DNA from: Patescibacteria group bacterium UBA926
GTDB lineage: Bacteria; Patescibacteriota; Doudnabacteria; UBA920
Direction: 5' to 3'
NCBI GenBank assembly: GCA_002293685.1
Contig: DBDS01000004.1
Span: 34,479-98,478 of the forward strand
Length of the DNA: 64,000 bases
The translations under genes and the position numbers were made by a program. The notes beneath the pieces were generated by a model. That model saw only the letters and a program-made list of their open reading frames with translations. It did not search any database and was not told the origin of the DNA. Position 1 is the first letter of the stretch. Each line of letters opens with the position of its first letter. Of this stretch, positions 3,941 to 57,313 are shown piece by piece.

Positions 3941-4008
3941 TGTCATCCCAATAGAATTAGGATTTGGTTTAATGAAAGATGGATCCCGGGTCGAGCCCGG
4001 GATGACAA
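3941..4008. repeat. GC-rich palindromic mini-element copy E2 with termini TGTCATCCC / GGGATGACA
   Basis: TGTCATCCC at 3941-3949 and GGGATGACAA at 4001-4008. An internal GGATCCCGGGTCGAGCCCGGGAT palindrome is present. Confidence 0.85.
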
Positions 4009-7570: not shown

Positions 7571-7693
7571 TGTCATCCCCGCCGCTAGATATTTCCTATG
7601 TCATCCCCGCGAAGGCGGGGATCCATTAGGGCACTTATAGATTCCGGATTTCCCGCGTTCACCTTCGGTGAACTTGTAGAATCCGGAATGACG
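7571..7693. repeat. composite GC-rich palindromic element E3 (two TGTCATCCCC starts, ATCCCCGCGAAGGCGGGGAT palindrome, GTTCACC-TTC-GGTGAAC palindrome, end CCGGAATGAC)
   Basis: Read directly from the sequence. It lies between the hydrolase start and the csp terminator. Confidence 0.8.
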
Positions 7694-10858: not shown

Positions 10859-11131
10859 TTATTTTTTCTTTCTTGTTTGCTTCGGTTTCATCCCTAGCAC
10901 AAACTTAATGAACGAACCGATTTTGAAACCCTCTGACTTTATATTTTTACTAAACTCACTAAGGTCTTCGGTAACTAATTTTACCCCACGTGTAGCTTGA
11001 TCGGCAACCATCTTTAATGCTCGCAGGAACATTATAAAATAGATGAGTGCGATAACTAAAAACGCAGTGACAAAAATAATTGCGATGCCTGTGATAATAA
11101 AAAATAAATCGACTAATGATATCATTTCCAT
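10859..11131 (-). CDS. DUF948-like small membrane protein
   Basis: 90-aa protein with an N-terminal TM helix followed by an amphipathic helix. It is adjacent to the YtxH-like gene. Confidence 0.45.
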   Translation of the reverse strand: MEMISLVDLFFIITGIAIIFVTAFLVIALIYFIMFLRALKMVADQATRGVKLVTEDLSEFSKNIKSEGFKIGSFIKFVLGMKPKQTRKKK

Positions 11132-11162
11132 GTGTTAATTATATCACATTTAACTCTCTGGA

Positions 11163-11720
11163 TTATAACGAGTATTTATAAAGGAGTGTTTCAATCACGT
11201 TTTGGTGTTTTAATCGGAGTTCCTCGTCGCGACCAATCTCGATGATTTCATCGTTGCGGTCTGTACCGCTTGCTGTCCAGTTGAAAGAACCAGTGAAATA
11301 AGATTTTTCGGTGACCAAAGTTTTCAAATGCATAATCGAACTATGATCGTTGAAGGCGATTGGGATTCCTGCTTGTTGTAAATCTTTTACAATTGATTCT
11401 TGGATATCTAAGGTGGTTGATTGTTTCTTATCCATGACCCTGCGCACTTCAACACCTCTATATTTAGCACCAATGAGAGCGTCTTTGATGTCTTGTCTGG
11501 TGAAAGTATAAATCGCGAAATACACAAACCGTTCGGCTTCGTTTATTTCGTTGATTAATAACTCGTTGCTAGCCACTTCTTTGTTGTAATACACTTCCAC
11601 TTGGCGTGCTGCACGTTCTTGCCACGCCGGTTCAACATGAAAAGAATAATAGAACTGCGCGCTCACGGCGATAAGCCCTGCTATTATAGTGACGTAGATT
11701 AAGTCTCTGTTGATTTTCAC
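11163..11720 (-). CDS. phospholipase D-family (HKD-motif) protein, Nuc-like
   Basis: HLKTLVTEKSYFTGSFNWT matches HxK(x)4D(x)6GSxN. An N-terminal TM helix is present. The GTG start lies inside the inverted-repeat module. Confidence 0.65.
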   Translation of the reverse strand: MKINRDLIYVTIIAGLIAVSAQFYYSFHVEPAWQERAARQVEVYYNKEVASNELLINEINEAERFVYFAIYTFTRQDIKDALIGAKYRGVEVRRVMDKKQSTTLDIQESIVKDLQQAGIPIAFNDHSSIMHLKTLVTEKSYFTGSFNWTASGTDRNDEIIEIGRDEELRLKHQNVIETLLYKYSL

Positions 11721-11816
11721 CCTGTTAAATTATTAATATTGATTTAGATGCTCAGATTTATGAACAACTATTCAACCTGTTGAATCTGAAAGTTAAAATG
11801 TATTTAACAGGGTGAA
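11716..11816. repeat. ORF-less inverted-repeat module TTCACCCTGTTAAAT ... ATTTAACAGGGTGAA (15-bp perfect inverted repeat, ~70-bp spacer)
   Basis: Read directly from the sequence. The repeats match the terminal repeats of the GIY-YIG cassette at 18104-18382. One repeat overlaps the start codon of the PLD-like gene. Confidence 0.8.
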
Positions 11817-11877
11817 TATTTATATTATAAAACAGGACGTTCAAACCCTGTTTAAGAAAAACTCAATTTTGATGTAA

Positions 11878-12315
11878 TTATTTGTCTGTGTGTTTTGTAG
11901 TTTCGCGTTTGTCGTCTCTGGTTTTGATGTATTCGCGCTTGTCTTGTTTCTTGCGACCACGGCCAACACCGATTTTTAGTTTCACTAAATTTTTTGGACC
12001 AATGAAAATTTCCATTGGCACAATGATAGTTCCTTTTTCTTTGCCGAGCAGTTGGTTCAACTCTTTTTTGTTTAACAAGACTTGTCGGTCTTTGGTTGGG
12101 TTGTAGTCTTCAGTTGGCGCATACTTGTAAGGTCCGATGTGCGCGTTTACAAGGGTTGCTCCTCGGGCGGAGATTTTGACGTAGCTACCCGCTAGCGAGA
12201 CGTTGCCAGTTTTGGCTGATTTAACTTCGCGACCTTCCAATACCAAACCAGCATCAAAGGTGTCTGTGATGTCGTAATCAAATTTCGCTCGTTTGTTGAA
12301 AGCTAAAGATTTCAT
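11878..12315 (-). CDS. smpB: SsrA-binding protein SmpB
   Basis: Contains KFDYDITDTFDAGLVLEGREVKS...LLNKKELNQLLGKEKGTIIVP, the conserved SmpB sequence. Confidence 0.9.
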   Translation of the reverse strand: MKSLAFNKRAKFDYDITDTFDAGLVLEGREVKSAKTGNVSLAGSYVKISARGATLVNAHIGPYKYAPTEDYNPTKDRQVLLNKKELNQLLGKEKGTIIVPMEIFIGPKNLVKLKIGVGRGRKKQDKREYIKTRDDKRETTKHTDK

Positions 12316-12386
12316 ATTGTTGTCCCTTATATTTTACCTGTAATAGACTAATAAAAAAAGCCGGAGTGGGGAGTACTCAGGCTAAG

Positions 12387-12635
12387 TTATTCTTTCCATT
12401 CTTCGAGCCAGGATTTGTCGAATAAATCATCTCCGTCGAGAATGAACAGTGGTTTATCAGTTTGACGATTGCCAAGCATGACCTTAGGGTTTTCATAAAG
12501 ACCCATTTCAGCATGGACAACCTCAAATGGTCCAGGTCCGAACTTTTTTTCCATGAGGTCTATCCAACTGCTCCGATTTTTGGAGCGCCAAGTTACTTTT
12601 GTTCCAATTTGGAAGTTCTCTGGCGTATTCTTCAT
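12387..12635 (-). CDS. hypothetical protein
   Basis: 82-aa ORF. No motif recognised. Confidence 0.35.
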   Translation of the reverse strand: MKNTPENFQIGTKVTWRSKNRSSWIDLMEKKFGPGPFEVVHAEMGLYENPKVMLGNRQTDKPLFILDGDDLFDKSWLEEWKE

Positions 12636-12733
12636 AATTAAATGCCTCCGTTTTGTTGACTTACTATAAAGTAAAACAGTGGAATTGTCAAGATTACTGC
12701 TTTCGATTTTGTGTTATAATTAAACCCATGAAC

Positions 12734-12825
12734 CCTGTTAAATATGCTAATTTCTTGAACAACAGGGAACAATTAGATTGGCTTACCAGTCTATTTTTAC
12801 TCATTAAATATTTAACAGGGTGAAA
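12734..12825. repeat. ORF-less inverted-repeat module CCCTGTTAAATAT ... ATATTTAACAGGGTGAAA overlapping the argS GTG start
   Basis: The repeats are 13/13 complementary with a ~62-bp spacer. GTG at 12820 is inside the right-hand repeat. Confidence 0.8.
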
Positions 12826-14556
12826 GCTTATATTTCCGGCTTAATTAGCGATGCTGTAAGGCAAATTTCTCCTTCCGAAGCGGAGGAGGTTTTAGGTTCG
12901 GGCAATTTCGATATCAGCTATCCAAAGAGCGGCTTTGGTGACTACGCAACCAATGTCGCGATGATGCTGTTTAAGAAGTTCAATGTTGTTCCGGCAGAAA
13001 ACCCAGTTGATTTTGCAAAACAATTAGCAGAAAAATTAGTCGAACTTGATGGTGGTTATACTTTTTCGAATATCGAAGCTCAGAACGGATTTATTAATTT
13101 CACAATTTCACCAAGAGTTTTGTTAAATACTTTGTCGGAGATAATTGAAGCCAAAGAAAATTACGGCAAAGTGGATTTAGGACAAGGTCAAAAAGTTTTG
13201 GTTGAATATTTTCAGCCGAACATCGCTAAGCCTCTTCATCTTGGTCATTTGCGCACTGCTATTATTGGTGATAGCTTATTCAAAATTTTGGGCTTTTCAA
13301 ATTATCAAACCGAGAGCGATACTCACTTAGGTGACTGGGGAACTCAATTTGGTTTGCTCATGCTTGCTTACAAAAAATGGGGCGATGCAGAAACAGTGAA
13401 GCAAGATCCAATTACAGAATTGAATAAACTTTATGTTCGTATCAATACAGAAATGGAAGCCGACCCAGAATTACGCGAACAAGGTAAGGCAGAGTTTGTG
13501 AAACTAGAACAGGGTGATTCCGAAAACGAAGAACTTTGGAAACAGTTTAAAGAATGGAGCTGGCAAGAATTTGGGATCATCTATGATGATTTAGGTGTGC
13601 GCAAAGCCGATAATGATTGGCCGGAAAGTTTTTACATGGATAAAATGCCAGCTGTTATTGAACAACTAAAGGCTAAGAATTTATTAGTTGAATCTCAGGG
13701 CGCGCAGATTGTGAATTTAGAAGATTACGGTTTAGGTGTTGCTGTGGTTGTAAAAAGCGATGGTGGAACAACATATTTGCTTCGTGATTTAGCAACTTAT
13801 ATTTTCCGAAAACAACAAGGCTTTGAAAAACAAATTTATGTTGTCGATAATCGCCAGTCTCACGCATTAGCGCAAACTTTTAAAATCTTAGAATTACTAG
13901 GAGTGATTACTTCGCCAACCGAAGCTGTTCACATTGCTTACGGTGTGTTGAGTTTGCCGGAAGGTCAGATGAGTACCCGAAAAGGCACAATGGTTGGAGC
14001 GAAAGAGTTGATTCAAAAAGCGCAAGAGAAAGCTTTAGAGATTATCAATGAAAAGAATCCTGGATTACAGAATAAAGAAGCTGTTTCCAAACAAGTAATG
14101 CAAGCGGCCTTAAAGTATTTCGATCTTTCCCATAATTACAAAAGCGATATCGTGTTCACTTGGGACAAAGCGCTTTCGTTTGAGGGGAACACCGGTCCTT
14201 ACTTGCAATACACCCATGCTCGAATCAATGGAATTTTACGAAAAACCCAAGGTATCGCAGTCGAACAAATTGATCAGAACATTGCACTCGAAGACATAGA
14301 GCAACTACTACTTCGTAAGTTGCAAAAGTTCCCGGAAATAATTACTCAAACAGCAGAAAACTTTTCACCGAATATTATTAGCAACTATCTTTTCGAACTT
14401 TCTCAGATATTCAATTCGTTCTATGAAGCCGTGCCGATTCTAAAAGAAACAGATAGCGCGAAACAAAATATTCGAATTAAAATTATTATCGGAACCGCAC
14501 AAGTATTAAAAAATGGTCTTAATCTTTTAGGCATCCCAGCACCAGAGGAAATGTGA
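12820..14556 (+). CDS. argS: arginine--tRNA ligase
   Basis: 578-aa protein with a class I HIGH motif (PLHLGHLRTA) and an MSTRKG motif. It matches ArgRS along its full length. Confidence 0.95.
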   Translation: MKAYISGLISDAVRQISPSEAEEVLGSGNFDISYPKSGFGDYATNVAMMLFKKFNVVPAENPVDFAKQLAEKLVELDGGYTFSNIEAQNGFINFTISPRVLLNTLSEIIEAKENYGKVDLGQGQKVLVEYFQPNIAKPLHLGHLRTAIIGDSLFKILGFSNYQTESDTHLGDWGTQFGLLMLAYKKWGDAETVKQDPITELNKLYVRINTEMEADPELREQGKAEFVKLEQGDSENEELWKQFKEWSWQEFGIIYDDLGVRKADNDWPESFYMDKMPAVIEQLKAKNLLVESQGAQIVNLEDYGLGVAVVVKSDGGTTYLLRDLATYIFRKQQGFEKQIYVVDNRQSHALAQTFKILELLGVITSPTEAVHIAYGVLSLPEGQMSTRKGTMVGAKELIQKAQEKALEIINEKNPGLQNKEAVSKQVMQAALKYFDLSHNYKSDIVFTWDKALSFEGNTGPYLQYTHARINGILRKTQGIAVEQIDQNIALEDIEQLLLRKLQKFPEIITQTAENFSPNIISNYLFELSQIFNSFYEAVPILKETDSAKQNIRIKIIIGTAQVLKNGLNLLGIPAPEEM

Positions 14557-14582
14557 CATCATAAACCAGAATTTGTTTATGA

Positions 14583-14740
14583 TGTCATCCCGGCAGCTAC
14601 AAGTGGTCCCCGCTTTCGCGGGGATAAACTCCGCGAGGACGAGGGCTAGCCGGGATCCATACCCTTTAAACTAATGGATTCCCACCTTCGAGCTCGCGAT
14701 GCTCGGGCTCTGCCCGAGCAAGCTCGTGTGGGAATGACAA
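14583..14740. repeat. composite GC-rich palindromic element E4 (TGTCATCCCGGCAGCTACAAG...CTAGCCGGGATCC followed by GGATTCCCAC...GTGGGAATGACAA)
   Basis: The first half is the reverse-complement homolog of elements at 26060-26150 and 57601-57679. It lies between argS and ileS and ends 9 bp before the ileS start. Confidence 0.85.
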
Positions 14741-14749
14741 CGGAAAATT

Positions 14750-17700
14750 ATGACAGAACAAACTAACAAACCACAATCAAATACTCCAAATTTTAACGAA
14801 CAAGAACTAGAAGTTTTAAAGTTTTGGGCCGAGCAAAATATTTTTGAGAAGAGCTTAGAGCAAACTAAAGATGCTAAACCTTTTGTTTTTTATGATGGAC
14901 CACCGTTTGCAACAGGAGTTCCTCACTACGGACACATTTTAATTTCGGCCGTTAAGGATGCATTCGGTCGTTATCAAACCATGAAGGGCAATTCTGTGCG
15001 TCGTGTTTGGGGATGGGATTGTCATGGGTTGCCTATTGAAAATATTGTTGAAGCCAAGCTTGGTATTTCTGGAAAGAAGCAAATTGAAGAAGTCGGTGTC
15101 GAAAAGTTCAACGCAGCTTGTCGTGAAAACGTCCTTACCTATGTAGACGAATGGGGTCGTACCATTGAGCGATTAGCACGCTGGGTTAACTTCAAGGACT
15201 CCTATAAAACTATGGACACCACCTACATGGAAAGTGTCTGGTGGGGTGTAAAGCAAGTGTGGGATAAAGATTTAATTTACCCTGACCATAAAGTTTTGCT
15301 TTACTGCAGTCGCTGTGAAACGCCATTGTCGAATTTTGAAGTGGCGATGGACAACAGTTATAAAGATGTCACAGAAGCTTCTGTTTTCGTCAAGTTCAAG
15401 TTAAATAGTGGTCAGCGAATTTTGGATTTCATGACCGACGATAAAACTTATGCTTTGGCGTGGACCACAACACCGTGGACATTACCTGGTAATACTGCGC
15501 TAAACATTGGCCCAGAAATCACTTACGTTATTGTTGAGCAAAACGGCGATAACTATATTTTAGCTAAGGACAGATTGGAAATTTTAGAAGGGCAATACGA
15601 AGTTAAGACAGAAATCAGTGCACGTTCTTTGGAGGGCTTAGCTTACGAACCATTGTATCCTGGCGTAATTTCCGATGAATCTGGTACTGCTCACAAGATA
15701 TATATAGAGGATTATGTCACAACTACTGATGGAACAGGGATAGTTCATAATGCTGCGATGTATGGGGAAGAAGATTTCGCGGCTGCCAAGGCACGCAATT
15801 TACCTCGTCAACATATGTTGGATGCGAAGGGTGAGTATCTACCATCTGCGCCTGAGAGCTTGCGCGGCGTGTTCTTTAAAGATGCTGATAAAATTGTTCT
15901 CGATGAATTGACTAGCAAAAATTTGGTTTATAAAACTCTTAACTACACTCACAGTTATCCTCACTGTTGGCGTTGTGGTACAGCGTTGTACTACTCAGCG
16001 TTACCAGCTTGGTTTATCAATATTCAAAAAGTGAAAGCGCGAATGCTCGAACTTAACGAAGGAATCAATTGGTATCCTGAACATCTTAAACACGGTCGCT
16101 TCGCGCAAGGAATTGAAAATGCGCCTGATTGGAACATTTCACGTAACCGTTATTGGGCAACGCCTTTGCCATTTTGGTTGTGTGAGAGCGAAGATTGCGA
16201 TAACAAAGTTTGTATAGGCTCAATTGATGAACTAAAAACCAGAGCTTCAAATTTCGATGAAGTTTATCCAAACTACGATCCGAACCCCTCCCTACCCTCC
16301 CCTCAGGAGGGGAGGGATAGGGAGGGGTCAATTGATTTGCATAAACCATTCATTGATAGAATCAAACTGCCTTGTGAAAAATGTAGCGGTGTAATGGCTC
16401 GCGTTCCTGAAGTAATTGATTGCTGGGTTGAATCTGCGAGCATGCCGTTTGCAGAACTCCATGCCCCGTTTGAAAACCAAGATTTGTTAGAACAGCGCTT
16501 ACCAGCAGATTTTGTATCTGAATATATTCCGCAGACCCGGGCTTGGTTCTACGTGTCGCATGTAATGAGCACGATCATTTTCGACAAAGCTCCGTTTAAA
16601 AATGTGATTACAACCGGAACAGTTTTAGCAGAAGACGGTACAAAGATGTCGAAATCAAAAAATAATTTCCCTGACCCAAATCTTGTTATTGATCAATACG
16701 GCGCAGATCCACTTCGTTTTTATCTTTTGACGAGTTCGATTGTAACCGGTGAAGACTTGAATTTCTCTGAAGCTGGCGTTTCTGAAGTAAACCGAAAGTT
16801 AAGTTTAATTCTTTGGAACACATTCCAGTTTTATAGAATGTATAGCCACGACACAATTGGCACCGAAGCGCCTCACGTAACTCACAGCCTAGATGTTTGG
16901 ATGCTGTCTAGATTGTTTGCAACACATGCTGAAGTTACAAAACAATTAGATGGTTTTAACACAGTGAAGGCAGGACGTGCTATTTCTGAATTAGTTACCG
17001 AACTTTCAACTTGGTTTGTTCGTCGCAGCCGCGATAGAATTAAATCCGGTGGGGAAGACGCTCGCACCGCGCTTCAAGTATTAGGTTTCAGTCTTGTTGA
17101 AATCAGCAAGATGCTTGCGCCATTTATGCCGTATCTCAGTGAAAAGATTTACAAAGAACTTACCGGTGAAGAATCAGTGCACTTAGCTTCTTGGAGTGAA
17201 GTTCGTGAGTATCGTCAAAGTAGTTTGGATGAAATGTCGGCTTTACGTTCAATAGTTGAAATCGGTCTAAGTCTTCGTAAAGAACACAACTTAAAAGTTC
17301 GCCAACCACTCGCAGAATTACAGTACCAAATTGCTAACGAAGAATTGAATCTAGACGAATCACTCGAGCAAATCATTGCCGAAGAAATGAATGTGAAGAA
17401 AGTGACAAACACCGAAGTAATCTCTCGCACCAACTGGGTCTCGAAAGCGGATAATGGTTTTATAGTTGCACTAAATACAGAGTTATCACAAGAATTAAAA
17501 GATGAAGGTTTGGCTCGTGATATCGAACGCGCCGTTCAAGATTTGCGAAAGAAGAGTGGTCTAAAAGTCGGACAAATTGTTGATTTGTATTTCACAACTA
17601 AGGACGACAACCTTGCCGAGATTCTTACATCATTAGTTGATCGAAAAAAGACTTTTATCAATCAAATTAAAACTAGCTTAGAGATTGAAGCTGATTACGA

Positions 17701-17755
17701 GACCCAGGCAACGATTAATGGCTCTGTGGTTTGGCTCGGCTTAGTTTTGGTGTAA
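14750..17755 (+). CDS. ileS: isoleucine--tRNA ligase
   Basis: 1001-aa protein with HYGH and KMSKS motifs. It matches IleRS throughout and carries a 45-bp palindromic in-frame insert. Confidence 0.95.
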   Translation: MTEQTNKPQSNTPNFNEQELEVLKFWAEQNIFEKSLEQTKDAKPFVFYDGPPFATGVPHYGHILISAVKDAFGRYQTMKGNSVRRVWGWDCHGLPIENIVEAKLGISGKKQIEEVGVEKFNAACRENVLTYVDEWGRTIERLARWVNFKDSYKTMDTTYMESVWWGVKQVWDKDLIYPDHKVLLYCSRCETPLSNFEVAMDNSYKDVTEASVFVKFKLNSGQRILDFMTDDKTYALAWTTTPWTLPGNTALNIGPEITYVIVEQNGDNYILAKDRLEILEGQYEVKTEISARSLEGLAYEPLYPGVISDESGTAHKIYIEDYVTTTDGTGIVHNAAMYGEEDFAAAKARNLPRQHMLDAKGEYLPSAPESLRGVFFKDADKIVLDELTSKNLVYKTLNYTHSYPHCWRCGTALYYSALPAWFINIQKVKARMLELNEGINWYPEHLKHGRFAQGIENAPDWNISRNRYWATPLPFWLCESEDCDNKVCIGSIDELKTRASNFDEVYPNYDPNPSLPSPQEGRDREGSIDLHKPFIDRIKLPCEKCSGVMARVPEVIDCWVESASMPFAELHAPFENQDLLEQRLPADFVSEYIPQTRAWFYVSHVMSTIIFDKAPFKNVITTGTVLAEDGTKMSKSKNNFPDPNLVIDQYGADPLRFYLLTSSIVTGEDLNFSEAGVSEVNRKLSLILWNTFQFYRMYSHDTIGTEAPHVTHSLDVWMLSRLFATHAEVTKQLDGFNTVKAGRAISELVTELSTWFVRRSRDRIKSGGEDARTALQVLGFSLVEISKMLAPFMPYLSEKIYKELTGEESVHLASWSEVREYRQSSLDEMSALRSIVEIGLSLRKEHNLKVRQPLAELQYQIANEELNLDESLEQIIAEEMNVKKVTNTEVISRTNWVSKADNGFIVALNTELSQELKDEGLARDIERAVQDLRKKSGLKVGQIVDLYFTTKDDNLAEILTSLVDRKKTFINQIKTSLEIEADYETQATINGSVVWLGLVLV
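16284..16328. repeat. in-frame palindromic insert in ileS: ACCCCTCCCTACCCTCCCCT|CAGGAGGGGAGGGATAGGGAGGGGT
   Basis: Near-perfect 45-bp palindrome, GC-rich, encoding PSLPSPQEGRDREGS (15 codons). Confidence 0.85.
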
Positions 17756-17773
17756 TCGTGGTATAATAATTCT

Positions 17774-18028
17774 ATGGATGCAATCTCAGGATTAAAATAC
17801 GCTTTAGTACTTGTTCTAATCGTTAGTGCTGCCTTGCTTGGCTGGACTACTTATTTAGAACGCAAAACTAATAGTCAAATTGAAGCATTTTCATCAGCCA
17901 TTAGCCAAGCTCAAAATGAAGCTCAAGCCAGACAGGTAATTCAAAACTTCCTTATTGATACCGAAAAGTTTAATCCGGCTTTATCAGCTTCAGCCGATAG
18001 CCAGCCCTGTAGTTGGCTCTGTGAGTAA
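17774..18028 (+). CDS. hypothetical small membrane protein
   Basis: 84-aa ORF with one TM helix. Confidence 0.4.
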   Translation: MDAISGLKYALVLVLIVSAALLGWTTYLERKTNSQIEAFSSAISQAQNEAQARQVIQNFLIDTEKFNPALSASADSQPCSWLCE

Positions 18029-18035
18029 ATCTTAA

Positions 18036-18072
18036 ACCTCCGTCTACATAATAGTATGACGGAGGTTTTTTC
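18036..18072 (+). terminator. intrinsic terminator ACCTCCGTC-loop-GACGGAGGT plus TTTTTT
   Basis: Perfect 9-bp stem plus a T6 run. Confidence 0.85.
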
Positions 18073-18103
18073 ATATTAATCACAGCTTGTTTGATATAAT
18101 TAA

Positions 18104-18382
18104 CCCTGTTAAATAATTTCAAATTTAAACATGCACTATGTTTATGTACTGTGTTCAGAGAAGGATAAAAAATGGTATACTGGTTATACTAGAAATTTGA
18201 AATTAAGATTTGAGCAACATAGGTTAGGTAAAGTAGTTTCTACTAAGCATCGCAGGCCTTTGAAGCTAATTTATTATGAAGCCTGTTTGAACCAACAAGA
18301 TGCAACTCACCGAGAAAAGTATTTAAAAACTTTTCATAGTAAAGTATTTATCAAACGTAGGCTCAAATCTTATTTAACAGGG
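18104..18382 (+). mobile_element. minimal GIY-YIG cassette: 84-aa nuclease gene bounded by inverted repeats CCCTGTTAAATAA / TATTTAACAGGG
   Basis: The inverted repeats abut the ORF, whose last codons YLTG* are encoded by the right-hand repeat. ORF-less repeat pairs occur at 11716-11816, 12734-12825 and 57209-57313. Confidence 0.6.
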
Positions 18383-18385
18383 TAA
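18131..18385 (+). CDS. GIY-YIG nuclease family protein (COG2827-like)
   Basis: MHYVYVLCSEKDKKWYTGYTRNLKLRFEQHRLG, carrying the GIY...YIG motif. Confidence 0.8.
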   Translation: MHYVYVLCSEKDKKWYTGYTRNLKLRFEQHRLGKVVSTKHRRPLKLIYYEACLNQQDATHREKYLKTFHSKVFIKRRLKSYLTG

Positions 18386-18387
18386 AC

Positions 18388-19095
18388 ATGCTAGCTAGAG
18401 ATTTAATGACAAAAAAGGTAATCACTGTTACTCCCGAAACACTCGTAAGTGAGGTAGCGGATCTTCTTCATAAGTATCATTTCACTGGCGTCCCTGTTGT
18501 AAATGATGAAGGTCGTGTTTTGGGTACTATTTCGGAACGAGATTTCATTACCGCCGATTCAAACTTGTATTTACCTACATATATTCATATGCTTTCGAAT
18601 CTAGATTATGTGAGAGGTTCGAACAAGCAACTTCCTCATGTGGTTGAGCAAGTGGTGAATGCAAAAGCAAAAGATATTATGAACCAAACCATTCCTTTTG
18701 CCCGACCTGATACTTCGATTGAAGAAATTGCCCGCATGTTCGCAGAGCAACGCGTGAACCCAGTGCCTGTCACCGACAGCACAAATAAATTACTAGGCGT
18801 AATTGCTCGTAGTGATTTAATTAAATTCTTTTCTCCTGGAATGGTTCGCTCTTCATATATTCCCCAGCAGGAAACTGTGCCTCGTGCACGGATGATTGAT
18901 TCTCAAGTTGCATACACACAATCCCATTTCTCTTCGACTTTTGCTTATGTTGCAAAAGCTAGGGCAAATATTTGGATAACCACAGCTGTTGTATTATTTT
19001 TGGTAGGTTTTATCGGGGGAATAATTTATGTTGCTGACCCGAATGTGTTTCGTGGTAAAATGAGCCCACAGTATTTACCAACTCAGGAAGAATAA
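18388..19095 (+). CDS. CBS-domain pair protein with C-terminal TM helix
   Basis: Two CBS-like segments (VITVTPETLVSEVADLL... and GVIARSDLIKF). Confidence 0.75.
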   Translation: MLARDLMTKKVITVTPETLVSEVADLLHKYHFTGVPVVNDEGRVLGTISERDFITADSNLYLPTYIHMLSNLDYVRGSNKQLPHVVEQVVNAKAKDIMNQTIPFARPDTSIEEIARMFAEQRVNPVPVTDSTNKLLGVIARSDLIKFFSPGMVRSSYIPQQETVPRARMIDSQVAYTQSHFSSTFAYVAKARANIWITTAVVLFLVGFIGGIIYVADPNVFRGKMSPQYLPTQEE

Positions 19096-19098
19096 TCA

Positions 19099-19821
19099 AT
19101 GTCTCGAGAATATAAATTAACAGGTTTCGTAATCAAGTCACAAGACTTAGGTGAGGCAGATTTGCTCCTCACTTTTTTTTCATTGTCGGAAGGAAAAATT
19201 CGCGCAGTTGTGAAATCGGCAAAAAAACTCACAAGTAGATTAGCAGGGAGAATTCAACCTGCTGCAGAAATCGAAATTAATTTGGCAGGAAATAATAGTT
19301 TACCAAAGTTGATTGGCGCGCAGGTTATGAATGCTTATTCTTCAGTTTTGGATTTTGAGGATAGCATGGCCACGCTTGTTGCCATGCAGGAATTTGTCAA
19401 TCGATCACTTCCTGATGGACAGCCAAACGAACAATTATTTGAGATCTATAGATCTTCACTCATAGAACTGGCAAAACATTCCGAATTATCCGGGTTGATA
19501 CTGGCAAGATTTTTTGCTCAAGGTTTGTCTGCACTGGGATTCGCGCCAATGGAACTAGATAAAAATTCAGAACTTGAATCCGAAATCTATTTTAGTAAAC
19601 AGGAAGGAAGATTTTCCAAAAATTCAATTAGTACTGATGATGTAAAAATATCTCCGGAGCTCCATAAATTATACATTCATCTACTATCTGGCGATTCTTT
19701 TAATGAAGCAATTGAACTAGGCTTGCAAAAACAAATTCTTTTCTTTTTGAATAATTTTATTAGCTACCAACTAGAAAGACCACTCCATGGTGCACAATAC
19801 TTTTTTAGCCAAAAGCCGTGA
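19099..19821 (+). CDS. recO: DNA repair protein RecO
   Basis: 240-aa protein with the RecO N-terminal OB-fold pattern (LTGFVIKSQDLGEADLLLTFFSLSEGKIRAVVKSAKK). Confidence 0.7.
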   Translation: MSREYKLTGFVIKSQDLGEADLLLTFFSLSEGKIRAVVKSAKKLTSRLAGRIQPAAEIEINLAGNNSLPKLIGAQVMNAYSSVLDFEDSMATLVAMQEFVNRSLPDGQPNEQLFEIYRSSLIELAKHSELSGLILARFFAQGLSALGFAPMELDKNSELESEIYFSKQEGRFSKNSISTDDVKISPELHKLYIHLLSGDSFNEAIELGLQKQILFFLNNFISYQLERPLHGAQYFFSQKP

Positions 19822-45678: not shown

Positions 45679-45915
45679 TTAAATTAGATGTCTGTTTCTA
45701 AACCCTTGTCCAGAACCAGACTTTAAGTATTTTTCAAAATTAAGAGCATCTTGCCTCTTAGAGAATGCACAGTACCATATTAATTTAACTGGTAGAAAAT
45801 TTTTAGTAGCATTCACTGACCCTTCGGTGTGTCGGTTCAATCTTTCTTTTACGTCTTTACTACTACCTGTATAGATTTTACCATTTATTAGTTTTAGTAG
45901 ATACACGTAATGCAT
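45679..45915 (-). CDS. GIY-YIG nuclease family protein (second copy), adjacent to tRNA-Ser
   Basis: MHYVYLLKLINGKIYTGSSKDVKERLNRH. The start is taken at the internal Met. The upstream extension of the called ORF overlaps a hairpin. Confidence 0.7.
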   Translation of the reverse strand: MHYVYLLKLINGKIYTGSSKDVKERLNRHTEGSVNATKNFLPVKLIWYCAFSKRQDALNFEKYLKSGSGQGFRNRHLI

Positions 45916-46023
45916 GTTTATTTTGCAACCCTTCGCTAAAGCTATGGGTTGCACACTTCGCTATTGTGATTTATTGGCTTGCCACACGAAGCCTTCTTGC
46001 CATCCGAAGGATGGGGCGAAGTG

Positions 46024-46111
<88 letters not shown>

Positions 46112-57186: not shown

Positions 57187-57208
57187 TATTTATTCCCTCT
57201 ATAATTTA

Positions 57209-57313
57209 CCCTGTTAAATATAGCTGAAATTAGCTAGTTTAGAAGACGTGTTTTGGTTTCGTAAAAGTGTTATAATTAACACATAAATCATAAATAATTT
57301 AACAAGGTAAATG
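57209..57313. repeat. ORF-less inverted-repeat module CCCTGTTAAATA ... ATTTAACAAGGTAAATG abutting the gatC start, with internal extended -10 TGTTATAAT
   Basis: Same half-sites as the GIY-YIG cassette. The right-hand half-site is degenerate by one base. TATAAT at 57271-57276. Confidence 0.7.

Follow-up and report, generated by a model that had tools for sequence, protein, structure and literature searches.

The stretch of DNA analysed here (the window, 64,000 nucleotides of contig DBDS01000004.1 of Patescibacteria group bacterium UBA926) contains, at 18131..18385 on the forward strand, an open reading frame (ORF) that encodes an 84-residue GIY-YIG nuclease (Pfam PF01541, 56.4 bits against a cut-off of 22.6, E=3.7e-15), in which the single domain spans residues 1-70. 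The gene is bracketed by inverted repeats: 18104-18116 holds CCCTGTTAAATAA, the exact reverse complement of which, TTATTTAACAGGG, is located at 18370-18382 (13 bp), and the arms can be extended to 17 nt at 94% complementarity, with a single mismatch (18100-18116 with 18370-18386). An initial annotation, made from the sequence alone, had recognized both the 84-residue ORF and its flanking repeats, although the right-hand repeat was placed one base short (18371-18382), and had noted correctly that the final Y-L-T-G-stop codons derive from this repeat, as TAT TTA ACA GGG TAA lies in the right arm. The promoter-like motif that it placed just before the left repeat is also present, an extended -10 box, TGATATAAT, at 18092..18100 (+), and is assigned here to the host gene and not to the element. 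The full-length unit, designated copy D (18100..18386, +), reads TTAA-CCCTG...CAGGG-TAAA, with the 279-bp core CCCTG..CAGGG at 18104-18382, and is matched from end to end by an nhmmer profile built from 68 elements (E=8e-74; see below). Upstream of copy D a Rho-independent-looking hairpin (18034-18068) and a run of T residues end the unit comprising the isoleucyl-tRNA synthetase (IleRS) gene and a small ORF; this is followed by TGATATAAT and then by the left arm, such that the 287-bp unit is inserted between the host -10 box and the ATG of a gene encoding a CBS-domain protein (CBS). When up to two mismatches were allowed, the 13-mer occurred 10 times in the window against 2.7 expected, with none of 100 shuffles containing as many, and eight of these occurrences form four inverted pairs, which correspond to copy D and three ORF-less copies, A, B and C.

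The nuclease gene and its flanking repeats constitute a real mobile DNA element of ~285 bp that is widespread in Patescibacteria. More than 7000 homologues of the protein, ~80% identical, occur in several lineages of the group; the best 120 of these are 74-98% identical and nearly all 84-86 residues in length, with Moranbacteria, Komeilibacteria and other Patescibacteria among their named sources. A scan of metagenome contigs yielded 80 loci, 77 of which could be tested for repeats, and 68 non-redundant copies were aligned. In 47 of the 77 testable loci the homologous ORF is enclosed by a perfect inverted repeat, 12 nt or longer, the halves of which occupy the same places as in the window, ~25-40 nt upstream of the ATG and within the last codons; almost none of 200 shuffles per locus gave a repeat as long as that observed. 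The block conserved across the 68 copies, R-TTYA-CCCTG...CAGGG-TRAA, begins and ends at the repeats, while the flanks outside it are unrelated, and the length of the core ranges from 276 to 290 bp. The consensus unit, (R)TTYA-CCCTGTTAAAT...ATTTAACAGGG-TRAA, contains one GIY-YIG gene of 84-85 codons, the stop codon of which is supplied by the TRAA found on the right side of most copies. The neighbouring genes differ at every metagenomic locus, the distance from the stop codon to the start of the next gene is 0-5 nt in about half of the loci, and one contig harbours two copies (L045 and L082) that are 84% identical. Viral contigs contained no homologue of the protein, and the mini hairpin described below was present in only two of them; phages are thus not an obvious vector.

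Insertion of the element is directly evident from orthologous sites that lack it. A scan of genome contigs for the CBS protein identified 12 Saccharibacteria loci (L008-L019) with the gene order IleRS, small ORF, CBS, RecO, none of which encodes a GIY-YIG protein. In 11 of the 12 a terminator hairpin is followed by an extended -10 box (TGATATAAT or a close variant), exactly 6 nt and the CBS ATG, while in L019 the ATG is positioned further downstream. The same empty CBS promoter layout is displayed by the sister species L101 and L102, in which ArgRS is 89% identical, and by L103. The site of copy D is therefore empty in L008-L019 and L101-L103, every empty-site relative examined retains the -10 box, the CBS ATG following after 6 nt in 14 of the 15 listed sites, and the TGATATAAT promoter evidently belongs to the host gene rather than to the element.

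The three ORF-less copies are insertions of the same kind. Copy A (11720..11816, -; 97 bp, TTCA plus CCCTG..CAGGG) splits the start codon of a PLD-like gene (11163-11720) after its A. In L101 and L102 the empty site is TATAATATAAATA^TGAAAATC, whereas the filled site consists of ATA, the insert, which extends from TTCACCCTG to CAGGG, and TGAAAATC; the TTCA was brought in by the element, while the right-hand TGAA pre-existed in the target. Copy B (12733..12820, +; 88-bp core) is located within the first codons of the ArgRS gene, with TGAA duplicated at 12729-12732 and 12821-12824. The corresponding empty sites in L101, L102 and L103 read TTATAAT-N7-ATGAAAGCTTAT, and the sequence A^TGAAAGCTTAT has been converted to ATGAA, followed by CCCTG...CAGGG and TGAAAGCTTAT. 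In both copies the host start codon has changed from ATG to GTG (the ArgRS GTG is at 12820), and the element ends with this G. Copy C (57209..57307, +; 99-bp core), one arm of which is mismatched (CAAGG), is flanked by the -10 box TATAAT and, at 57311, the gatC ATG; at this site the sister-species loci L106 and L107 contain only TCCCTCTATAAT-ATGAGC-ATGTTAAC, comprising the -10 box, ATGAGC and the gatC ATG. When folded as single-stranded DNA (ssDNA) the arms of all three copies close and inner hairpins form (for copy A z=-4.85); their interiors have no detectable homology to the ORF, and the arms alone match the element profile. All four insertions in the window thus occupy the stretch between the -10 box and the first codons (to about +5) of leaderless-type genes, encoding a PLD-like protein (A), ArgRS (B), GatC (C) and the CBS-domain protein (D).

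The empty-site loci of the relatives, which total more than 150 kb, contain not a single occurrence of the CCCTGTTAAAT motif. Because the sites are empty in sister species and other relatives, and these loci lack the motif, copies A, B, C and D are, by sequence comparison, independent, lineage-specific insertions. With defined ends, precise presence or absence at orthologous sites and 68 non-redundant loci with unrelated flanks, the element displays two of the features by which insertion sequences are recognized. The central proposal of the initial annotation, a very small selfish element delimited by the repeats, is supported by both the limits of conservation and the empty sites, for which it had suggested a search in related genomes and which were found in relatives from more than a dozen assemblies. 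The annotation had reasoned, however, that GIY-YIG paralogs devoid of repeats, together with repeats not associated with such genes, would point instead to a regulatory motif. A second paralog without repeats does indeed exist, as do three repeat pairs without a GIY-YIG gene, but those pairs are themselves insertions and the proposal is not undermined by them. It is probable that copy D belongs to a family of very small mobile elements of Patescibacteria, characterized by a gene-bearing unit, a three-way junction and gene-less derivatives.

Several genes of this lineage have a -10 box only 5-7 nt from the start codon and no Shine-Dalgarno sequence (18092-18100, 12714-12720, 57200-57205 and 11823-11828(-) in the window; also L008-L019 and L101-L107), a layout that, in sequence terms, is that of leaderless transcripts. 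The -10 box of the CBS gene is of the extended type, TGnTATAAT, and between species the length of the spacer is kept while its sequence is free. A scan with the sigma-70 consensus was uninformative, as these promoters have an extended -10 box and lack a -35 box. Two of the insertions contain features of their own. Copy B includes a terminator-like hairpin and a T run (12774-12800) just before the ArgRS start, and copy C an internal extended -10 box, TGTTATAAT, within a small hairpin (GTGTTATAATTAACAC; 57262-57277), 35-40 nt upstream of gatC. In view of these features, insertions B and C may have rewired the expression of the host genes.

The whole element is predicted to fold into a conserved three-armed structure, and compensatory covariation is seen in the alignment in all three helices (P1, P2 and P3). 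P1 is formed by the left arm (18100..18114, +) and the right arm (18372..18386, +), the latter coding for Y-L-T-G and the stop; it is 92% paired over the 68 elements, with compensatory changes at alignment column pairs 7/296, 10/293 and 13/290. In P2 the non-coding left subterminal sequence AATTTCAAATTT (18115..18126, +) pairs with codons 21-25 (R-N-L-K-L; 18193..18204, +), in which synonymous codon entropy is low. Changes on both sides make 9 of its 13 pairs compensatory, and the window copy itself carries a compensated T>C / A>G pair. P3 brings together codons 25-29, which include the catalytic R26 (18205..18215, +), and the right subterminal sequence GCTCAAATCTT, codons 77-81 (18361..18371, +), which does not vary even at synonymous sites. 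The loops of P2 and P3 each contain one half of the gene. Folding of the window copy as a single strand closed the arms and paired 18114-18126 with 18193-18205 and 18201-18215 with 18361-18375 (z=-5.1).

The P2 and P3 pairings have been kept through many independent double changes across the 68 elements, such as TAATTCCAGGTTTTG with CAAAACCTGGAATTA in L086 and TACCTTGAGA with TCTCAAGGTA in L050, while in P3 GAGG/CCTC, GAC/GTC and ACGAT/ATCGT are found. For the 43 pairs tested, 85.5% of the cells were paired, against 28-52% when the partners were slid by 1-3 columns; changes on both sides affected 17 pairs and 88 cells, compared with 6-9 pairs and 14-18 cells after sliding, and none of 500 shuffles reached the observed values. 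RNAalifold, given no prior structure, predicted the same junction, with no unpaired bases at the junction and 14 of 33 pairs compensatory. Synonymous-codon entropy is 0.50 bits in paired codons and 1.20 elsewhere in the ORF (p=4.6e-6); this constraint on the paired codons accounts for the invariance of the right end, third codon positions included. The Y of the left TTYA and the R of the right TRAA, 3 bp from the outer end of P1, usually do not form a Watson-Crick pair, the combinations being C/A in 34 copies, T/G in 13, T/A in 8 and C/G in 3 (Fisher's exact test, p=2e-5), such that this terminal-stem position (alignment columns 5 and 298; window 18102 and 18384) is held as T.G or C.A in 47 of the 68 copies. 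The end types that predominate, TTCA...TAAA and TTTA...TGAA, are mutually reverse complementary, and most copies therefore carry T.G on one strand and C.A on the other. The two classes are interspersed on the tree of elements.

The folded shape is retained in copies from which the gene has been lost. Extra copies at the metagenomic loci include minis of 35-60 nt, derivatives of ~145 nt, tandem arrays and second full copies, and in the gene-less derivatives of ~145, ~90 and 35-60 bp the junction is kept. Five derivatives folded as ssDNA (L031, L037, L051, L098 and L073) each formed P1 and two adjacent helices, a perfect three-way junction with no unpaired junction bases (z -3.8 to -8.3). The sequences of the helices, in contrast, differ. 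In L051 and the minis L073 and L098 both inner helices are unlike those of the full element, as is P3 in L037, while L031 and L037 have lost the first 20 codons and kept the P2 sequence as a local hairpin. The gene-less derivatives are presumably mobilized in trans.

Copies are often arranged head to tail (L037 2270-2450, L041 2098-2190, L098 777-1118, L051 1827-2252 and L076 1953-1985); some share a single TRAA, in others the next TTCA directly follows CAGGG, and solo left arms also occur. This arrangement suggests that new copies insert preferentially at the CAGGG^TRAA junction of a copy already in place.

The only protein encoded by the element is the nuclease. In an alignment of 32 sequences Y5, Y16, G18, R26, H30 and E62 are invariant, and Y5, Y16, R26, H30 and E62 are taken, from the known spacing of I-TevI, to be the catalytic residues. 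The AlphaFold2 (AF2) model (pLDDT 86.6) comprises strands and helices E2-9, E15-20, H23-32, E44-52, H55-65 and H68-83, a GIY-YIG core followed by a long C-terminal helix, for which Foldseek returned UPF0213, Slx1 (rmsd 1.8 over 71 residues), I-TevI and UvrC as matches. The nearest solved proteins are the UPF0213 members BH0048 (PDB 1ZG2, E=3.3e-7) and EF2693 (PDB 1YWL). Neither Pfam nor the AF2 model revealed an additional DNA-binding domain, the 84 residues representing a catalytic domain alone, and no NCBIfam family matches the protein. The element contains no transposase of a known class (DDE, HUH, Y1 HUH, or serine or tyrosine recombinase). The ORF is intact in 65 of the 68 non-redundant copies, with a median dN/dS of 0.10 at dS ~1.6, the signature of a protein under purifying selection, and the nuclease is apparently active.

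Among known systems the nearest is the Ssn family (SsnA of Neisseria meningitidis and homologues), whose single-domain GIY-YIG nucleases cut only ssDNA, next to a hairpin repeat termed NTS/SRM (Chenal et al. 2025, PMC11893778). The Ssn repeats flank the gene and are dispersed in the genome, a layout that has been likened to that of an insertion sequence, REP/RAYT and IS200/IS605 (PMC11893778). The element described here is similar in that a single-domain GIY-YIG protein of ~90 residues (here 84) is encoded by a gene bracketed by hairpin-forming or inverted repeats that also occur elsewhere in the genome. The resemblance is one of outline, however, and does not extend to the sequence of the repeat, which is AT-rich (CCCTGTTAAAT) and outside the published SRM pattern; HGTCWYN(0-2)YYVSBRHN(0-5)WNVSBRGN(0-2)RNCYNB had no match within 500 nt of the element at any of 76 loci. 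In addition, the gene is not placed between two local hairpins but inside one large hairpin or three-way junction, a structure to which part of the coding sequence contributes a strand, and insertion is directly evident from empty sites, which was not shown for Ssn in that study (PMC11893778).

Other systems share further features of the element. Like REP/BIME-RAYT and IS200/IS605 it combines small palindromic repeats in intergenic DNA with one enzyme gene flanked by them, an enzyme thought to act on folded single strands and no regular target duplication, but the enzyme is a hydrolytic GIY-YIG nuclease and not an HUH tyrosine transposase, and the structure is a three-way junction instead of simple hairpins. 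UPF0213 (BH0048, EF2693) and the nuclease domain of Slx1, which cuts branched DNA, are the nearest sequences and folds of solved structure, although UPF0213 has no known function or associated repeats and Slx1 has extra domains and a partner protein. Similar to miniature inverted-repeat transposable elements, copies A, B and C and the minis are short and non-coding, have the same inverted repeats as the coding element and are inserted at new sites; in contrast, there is no regular target duplication, and it is the folded shape that is conserved, with freely varying inner helices, and not the internal sequence. Full-text literature searches uncovered no report of terminal repeats on a bacterial GIY-YIG element. 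To our knowledge, no insertion-sequence family uses a GIY-YIG nuclease.

It could be argued that the junction acts in RNA, as a structured leader or mRNA element that regulates translation of the nuclease, couples its expression to the downstream host gene or is processed (for example by RNase III) to restore a short 5' end, with movement brought about by another factor. Indeed both arms, P2 and P3 are on a single transcript from the host promoter, P2 is only 5-12 nt from the ATG, the stop is in about half of the loci as close as 0-5 nt to the following start, and the junction is one that RNAalifold predicts. A structure in sense-strand RNA is, however, expected to give an excess of G.U pairs, whereas the non-Watson-Crick departures on the sense strand, counts that are not phylogenetically independent, comprise 40 G.T and 64 A.C (one special position left out). 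Furthermore, the ORF-less minis keep the junction with nothing to regulate, and have multiplied and formed tandem arrays, while no Rfam family matches the structure, a scan of 11000-19500 against Rfam 15 having returned only sub-threshold chance matches. The absence of a G.T excess, together with the multiplication of non-coding copies, favours a role at the level of DNA, and a function confined to RNA appears unlikely.

A comparably low likelihood is assigned to the view that this is a domesticated nuclease-repeat system, similar to NTS/SsnA in Neisseria, in which the repeats serve as gene tags at which the nuclease cleaves ssDNA that is entering the cell or being replicated, modulating transformation and recombination to the benefit of the host. 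The protein type and the logic of a nuclease with dispersed hairpins are those of Ssn, selection on the protein has been long and strong, and copies are found beside the essential genes for ArgRS and GatC. Against this, the gene is part of the inserted unit and is absent at the site from all close relatives, which also lack the repeats; members of the family, ~80% identical, are dispersed among phyla beside unrelated genes; and some copies have decayed. Domestication of this kind can, nevertheless, coexist with mobility. The position of all four pairs in the window, between a -10 box and a start codon, would also fit a host regulatory motif (an operator pair, attenuator or leader hairpin) that is common to several promoters and brackets the gene by chance, but the sister species, with the same promoters and genes, has no such motifs, and in unrelated genomes the motif brackets the homologous ORF beside unrelated genes, which makes this explanation scarcely credible. 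Hardly more convincing, and very improbable, is a free-standing homing endonuclease gene that cuts the allele lacking it and is copied in by repair, the repeats being remnants of the homing site. Although GIY-YIG is a classic homing-endonuclease fold, the paralog has a weak match to TIGR01453 (group I intron endonuclease) and the gene is present or absent at a conserved locus, the protein consists of the catalytic domain with no DNA-binding domain, the neighbours differ in every genome, so that there is no single conserved target locus, and ORF-less copies are inserted at other loci. An integron attC site, prompted by the fit of GTTAAAT to GTTRRRY, was dropped, as the core sites are arranged in the opposite order to those of attC and no integrase-like ORF was seen near the copies.

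We return to a mobile element and to how it might move. By analogy with the Ssn nucleases and Slx1, the encoded nuclease would recognize the folded junction in ssDNA and cut at the base of P1; we infer that the ends are recognized by the element's own enzyme. As a GIY-YIG enzyme is a hydrolytic nuclease, host functions would be needed for rejoining and insertion. New copies would tend to land just 5' of TRAA in DNA that is transiently single-stranded, for example in a promoter open complex. RNA polymerase melts much of the stretch between the -10 box and about +5, and it is a speculation that this melted promoter-start stretch provides the single-stranded target. Once inserted, the element would be transcribed from the host promoter, the abutment of its stop codon on the start of the next gene would limit harm to the host, and mini copies would be mobilized in trans by the nuclease. 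We tentatively propose, as a possibility that falls somewhat short of an even chance, that the element represents a new class of prokaryotic transposable element, the smallest autonomous one at ~285 bp, whose own 84-residue nuclease recognizes an ssDNA three-way junction built in part from its own codons, also mobilizes gene-less miniatures, and inserts at transiently single-stranded promoter-start junctions.

It should be emphasized that several observations weigh against the broader explanation, a family of mobile elements moved with the help of their own nuclease. Movement is attributed to the nuclease by analogy with related enzymes, and a GIY-YIG nuclease, being hydrolytic, cannot by itself rejoin DNA. 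No convincing regular target-site duplication was found among the 68 loci (boundary offsets 0-6, lengths 2-5), a 4-nt duplication being limited to copy B and a few loci, and details of the junctions vary among the four window copies, with 0-4 nt of ambiguity or microhomology; at copies C and D the 6-nt spacer between promoter and ATG is unlike that of the sister species. The copies in different genomes are old (dS ~1.6), which speaks for ancient spread and lineage-specific insertion rather than ongoing activity, and the window contains a single coding copy, the second paralog being armless. Finally, the structure could form in mRNA as well, a sense-strand RNA being opposed only weakly by the wobble test.

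If the protein does drive movement, the element would introduce a new enzyme class to prokaryotic transposition and lower the minimum size known for a self-contained mobile element. The overlap of codes is unusually tight, as codons of the catalytic region and the C terminus double as strands of a cis-acting structure. The recently discovered nucleases of the Ssn type gain a clear mobile-element context, and a different, structure-defined substrate could serve as an ssDNA tool. The streamlined genomes of Patescibacteria, moreover, tolerate insertions at the start codons of essential genes (in ArgRS ATG has become GTG and a leader has been added), and such insertions bear on the initiation of transcription and translation in these organisms.

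The second GIY-YIG gene of the window, at 45679-45915 on the reverse strand, had been described in the initial annotation as an unflanked paralog next to tRNA-Ser, and this is what was found (E=1.1e-16): it is 43% identical to the element ORF, a tRNA-Ser gene at 46024-46111 adjoins it, and searches with the element profile and for repeats detected neither a bracketing repeat nor CCCTGTTAAAT arms. Within the region 45679-45954 the protein comprises 78 residues from the ATG at 45915, and its start context, TAAACATGCAYTA, is common with that of the element ORF. The stop directly abuts the next start (TAAATG) and a hairpin (45924-45953) precedes the gene, of which the ORF alone matches the element profile (positions 34-287, E=3e-18). 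The paralog could be an immobilized relative or a member of another element family.

The window also contains a second, GC-rich family of hairpin repeats, (T)GTCATCCCsgg...ccsGGGATCCA, at 3942-4007, 7572-7626, 14584-14700, 26021, 49665, 57672 and 62784, whose GTCATCCC occurs nine times against 1.0 expected. Two copies, at 3979 (-) and 7599 (+), match the Ssn-related motif pattern exactly (0.13 expected) and are far from either GIY-YIG gene; the second paralog is a candidate for the nuclease partner of this family. The sister species lacks the copy found between ArgRS and IleRS (spacer 14557-14749), and its two genes abut (L101 9737/9739). A GC-rich near-palindrome of another kind, CCCCTCCCTACCCTCCCCT CAGG AGGGGAGGGATAGGGAGGGG, is in frame inside the IleRS gene (16276-16323), where it adds 11 codons (1001 residues against 990). 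The palindrome is present in the window and in L007 and is replaced by CCTGCTAACTTAAACGGAATG in L001 and the sister species. The C-terminal 300 residues of IleRS in L001 are 99% identical to those encoded in the window, and on these comparisons the palindrome is a strain-level, in-frame insertion in an essential gene.

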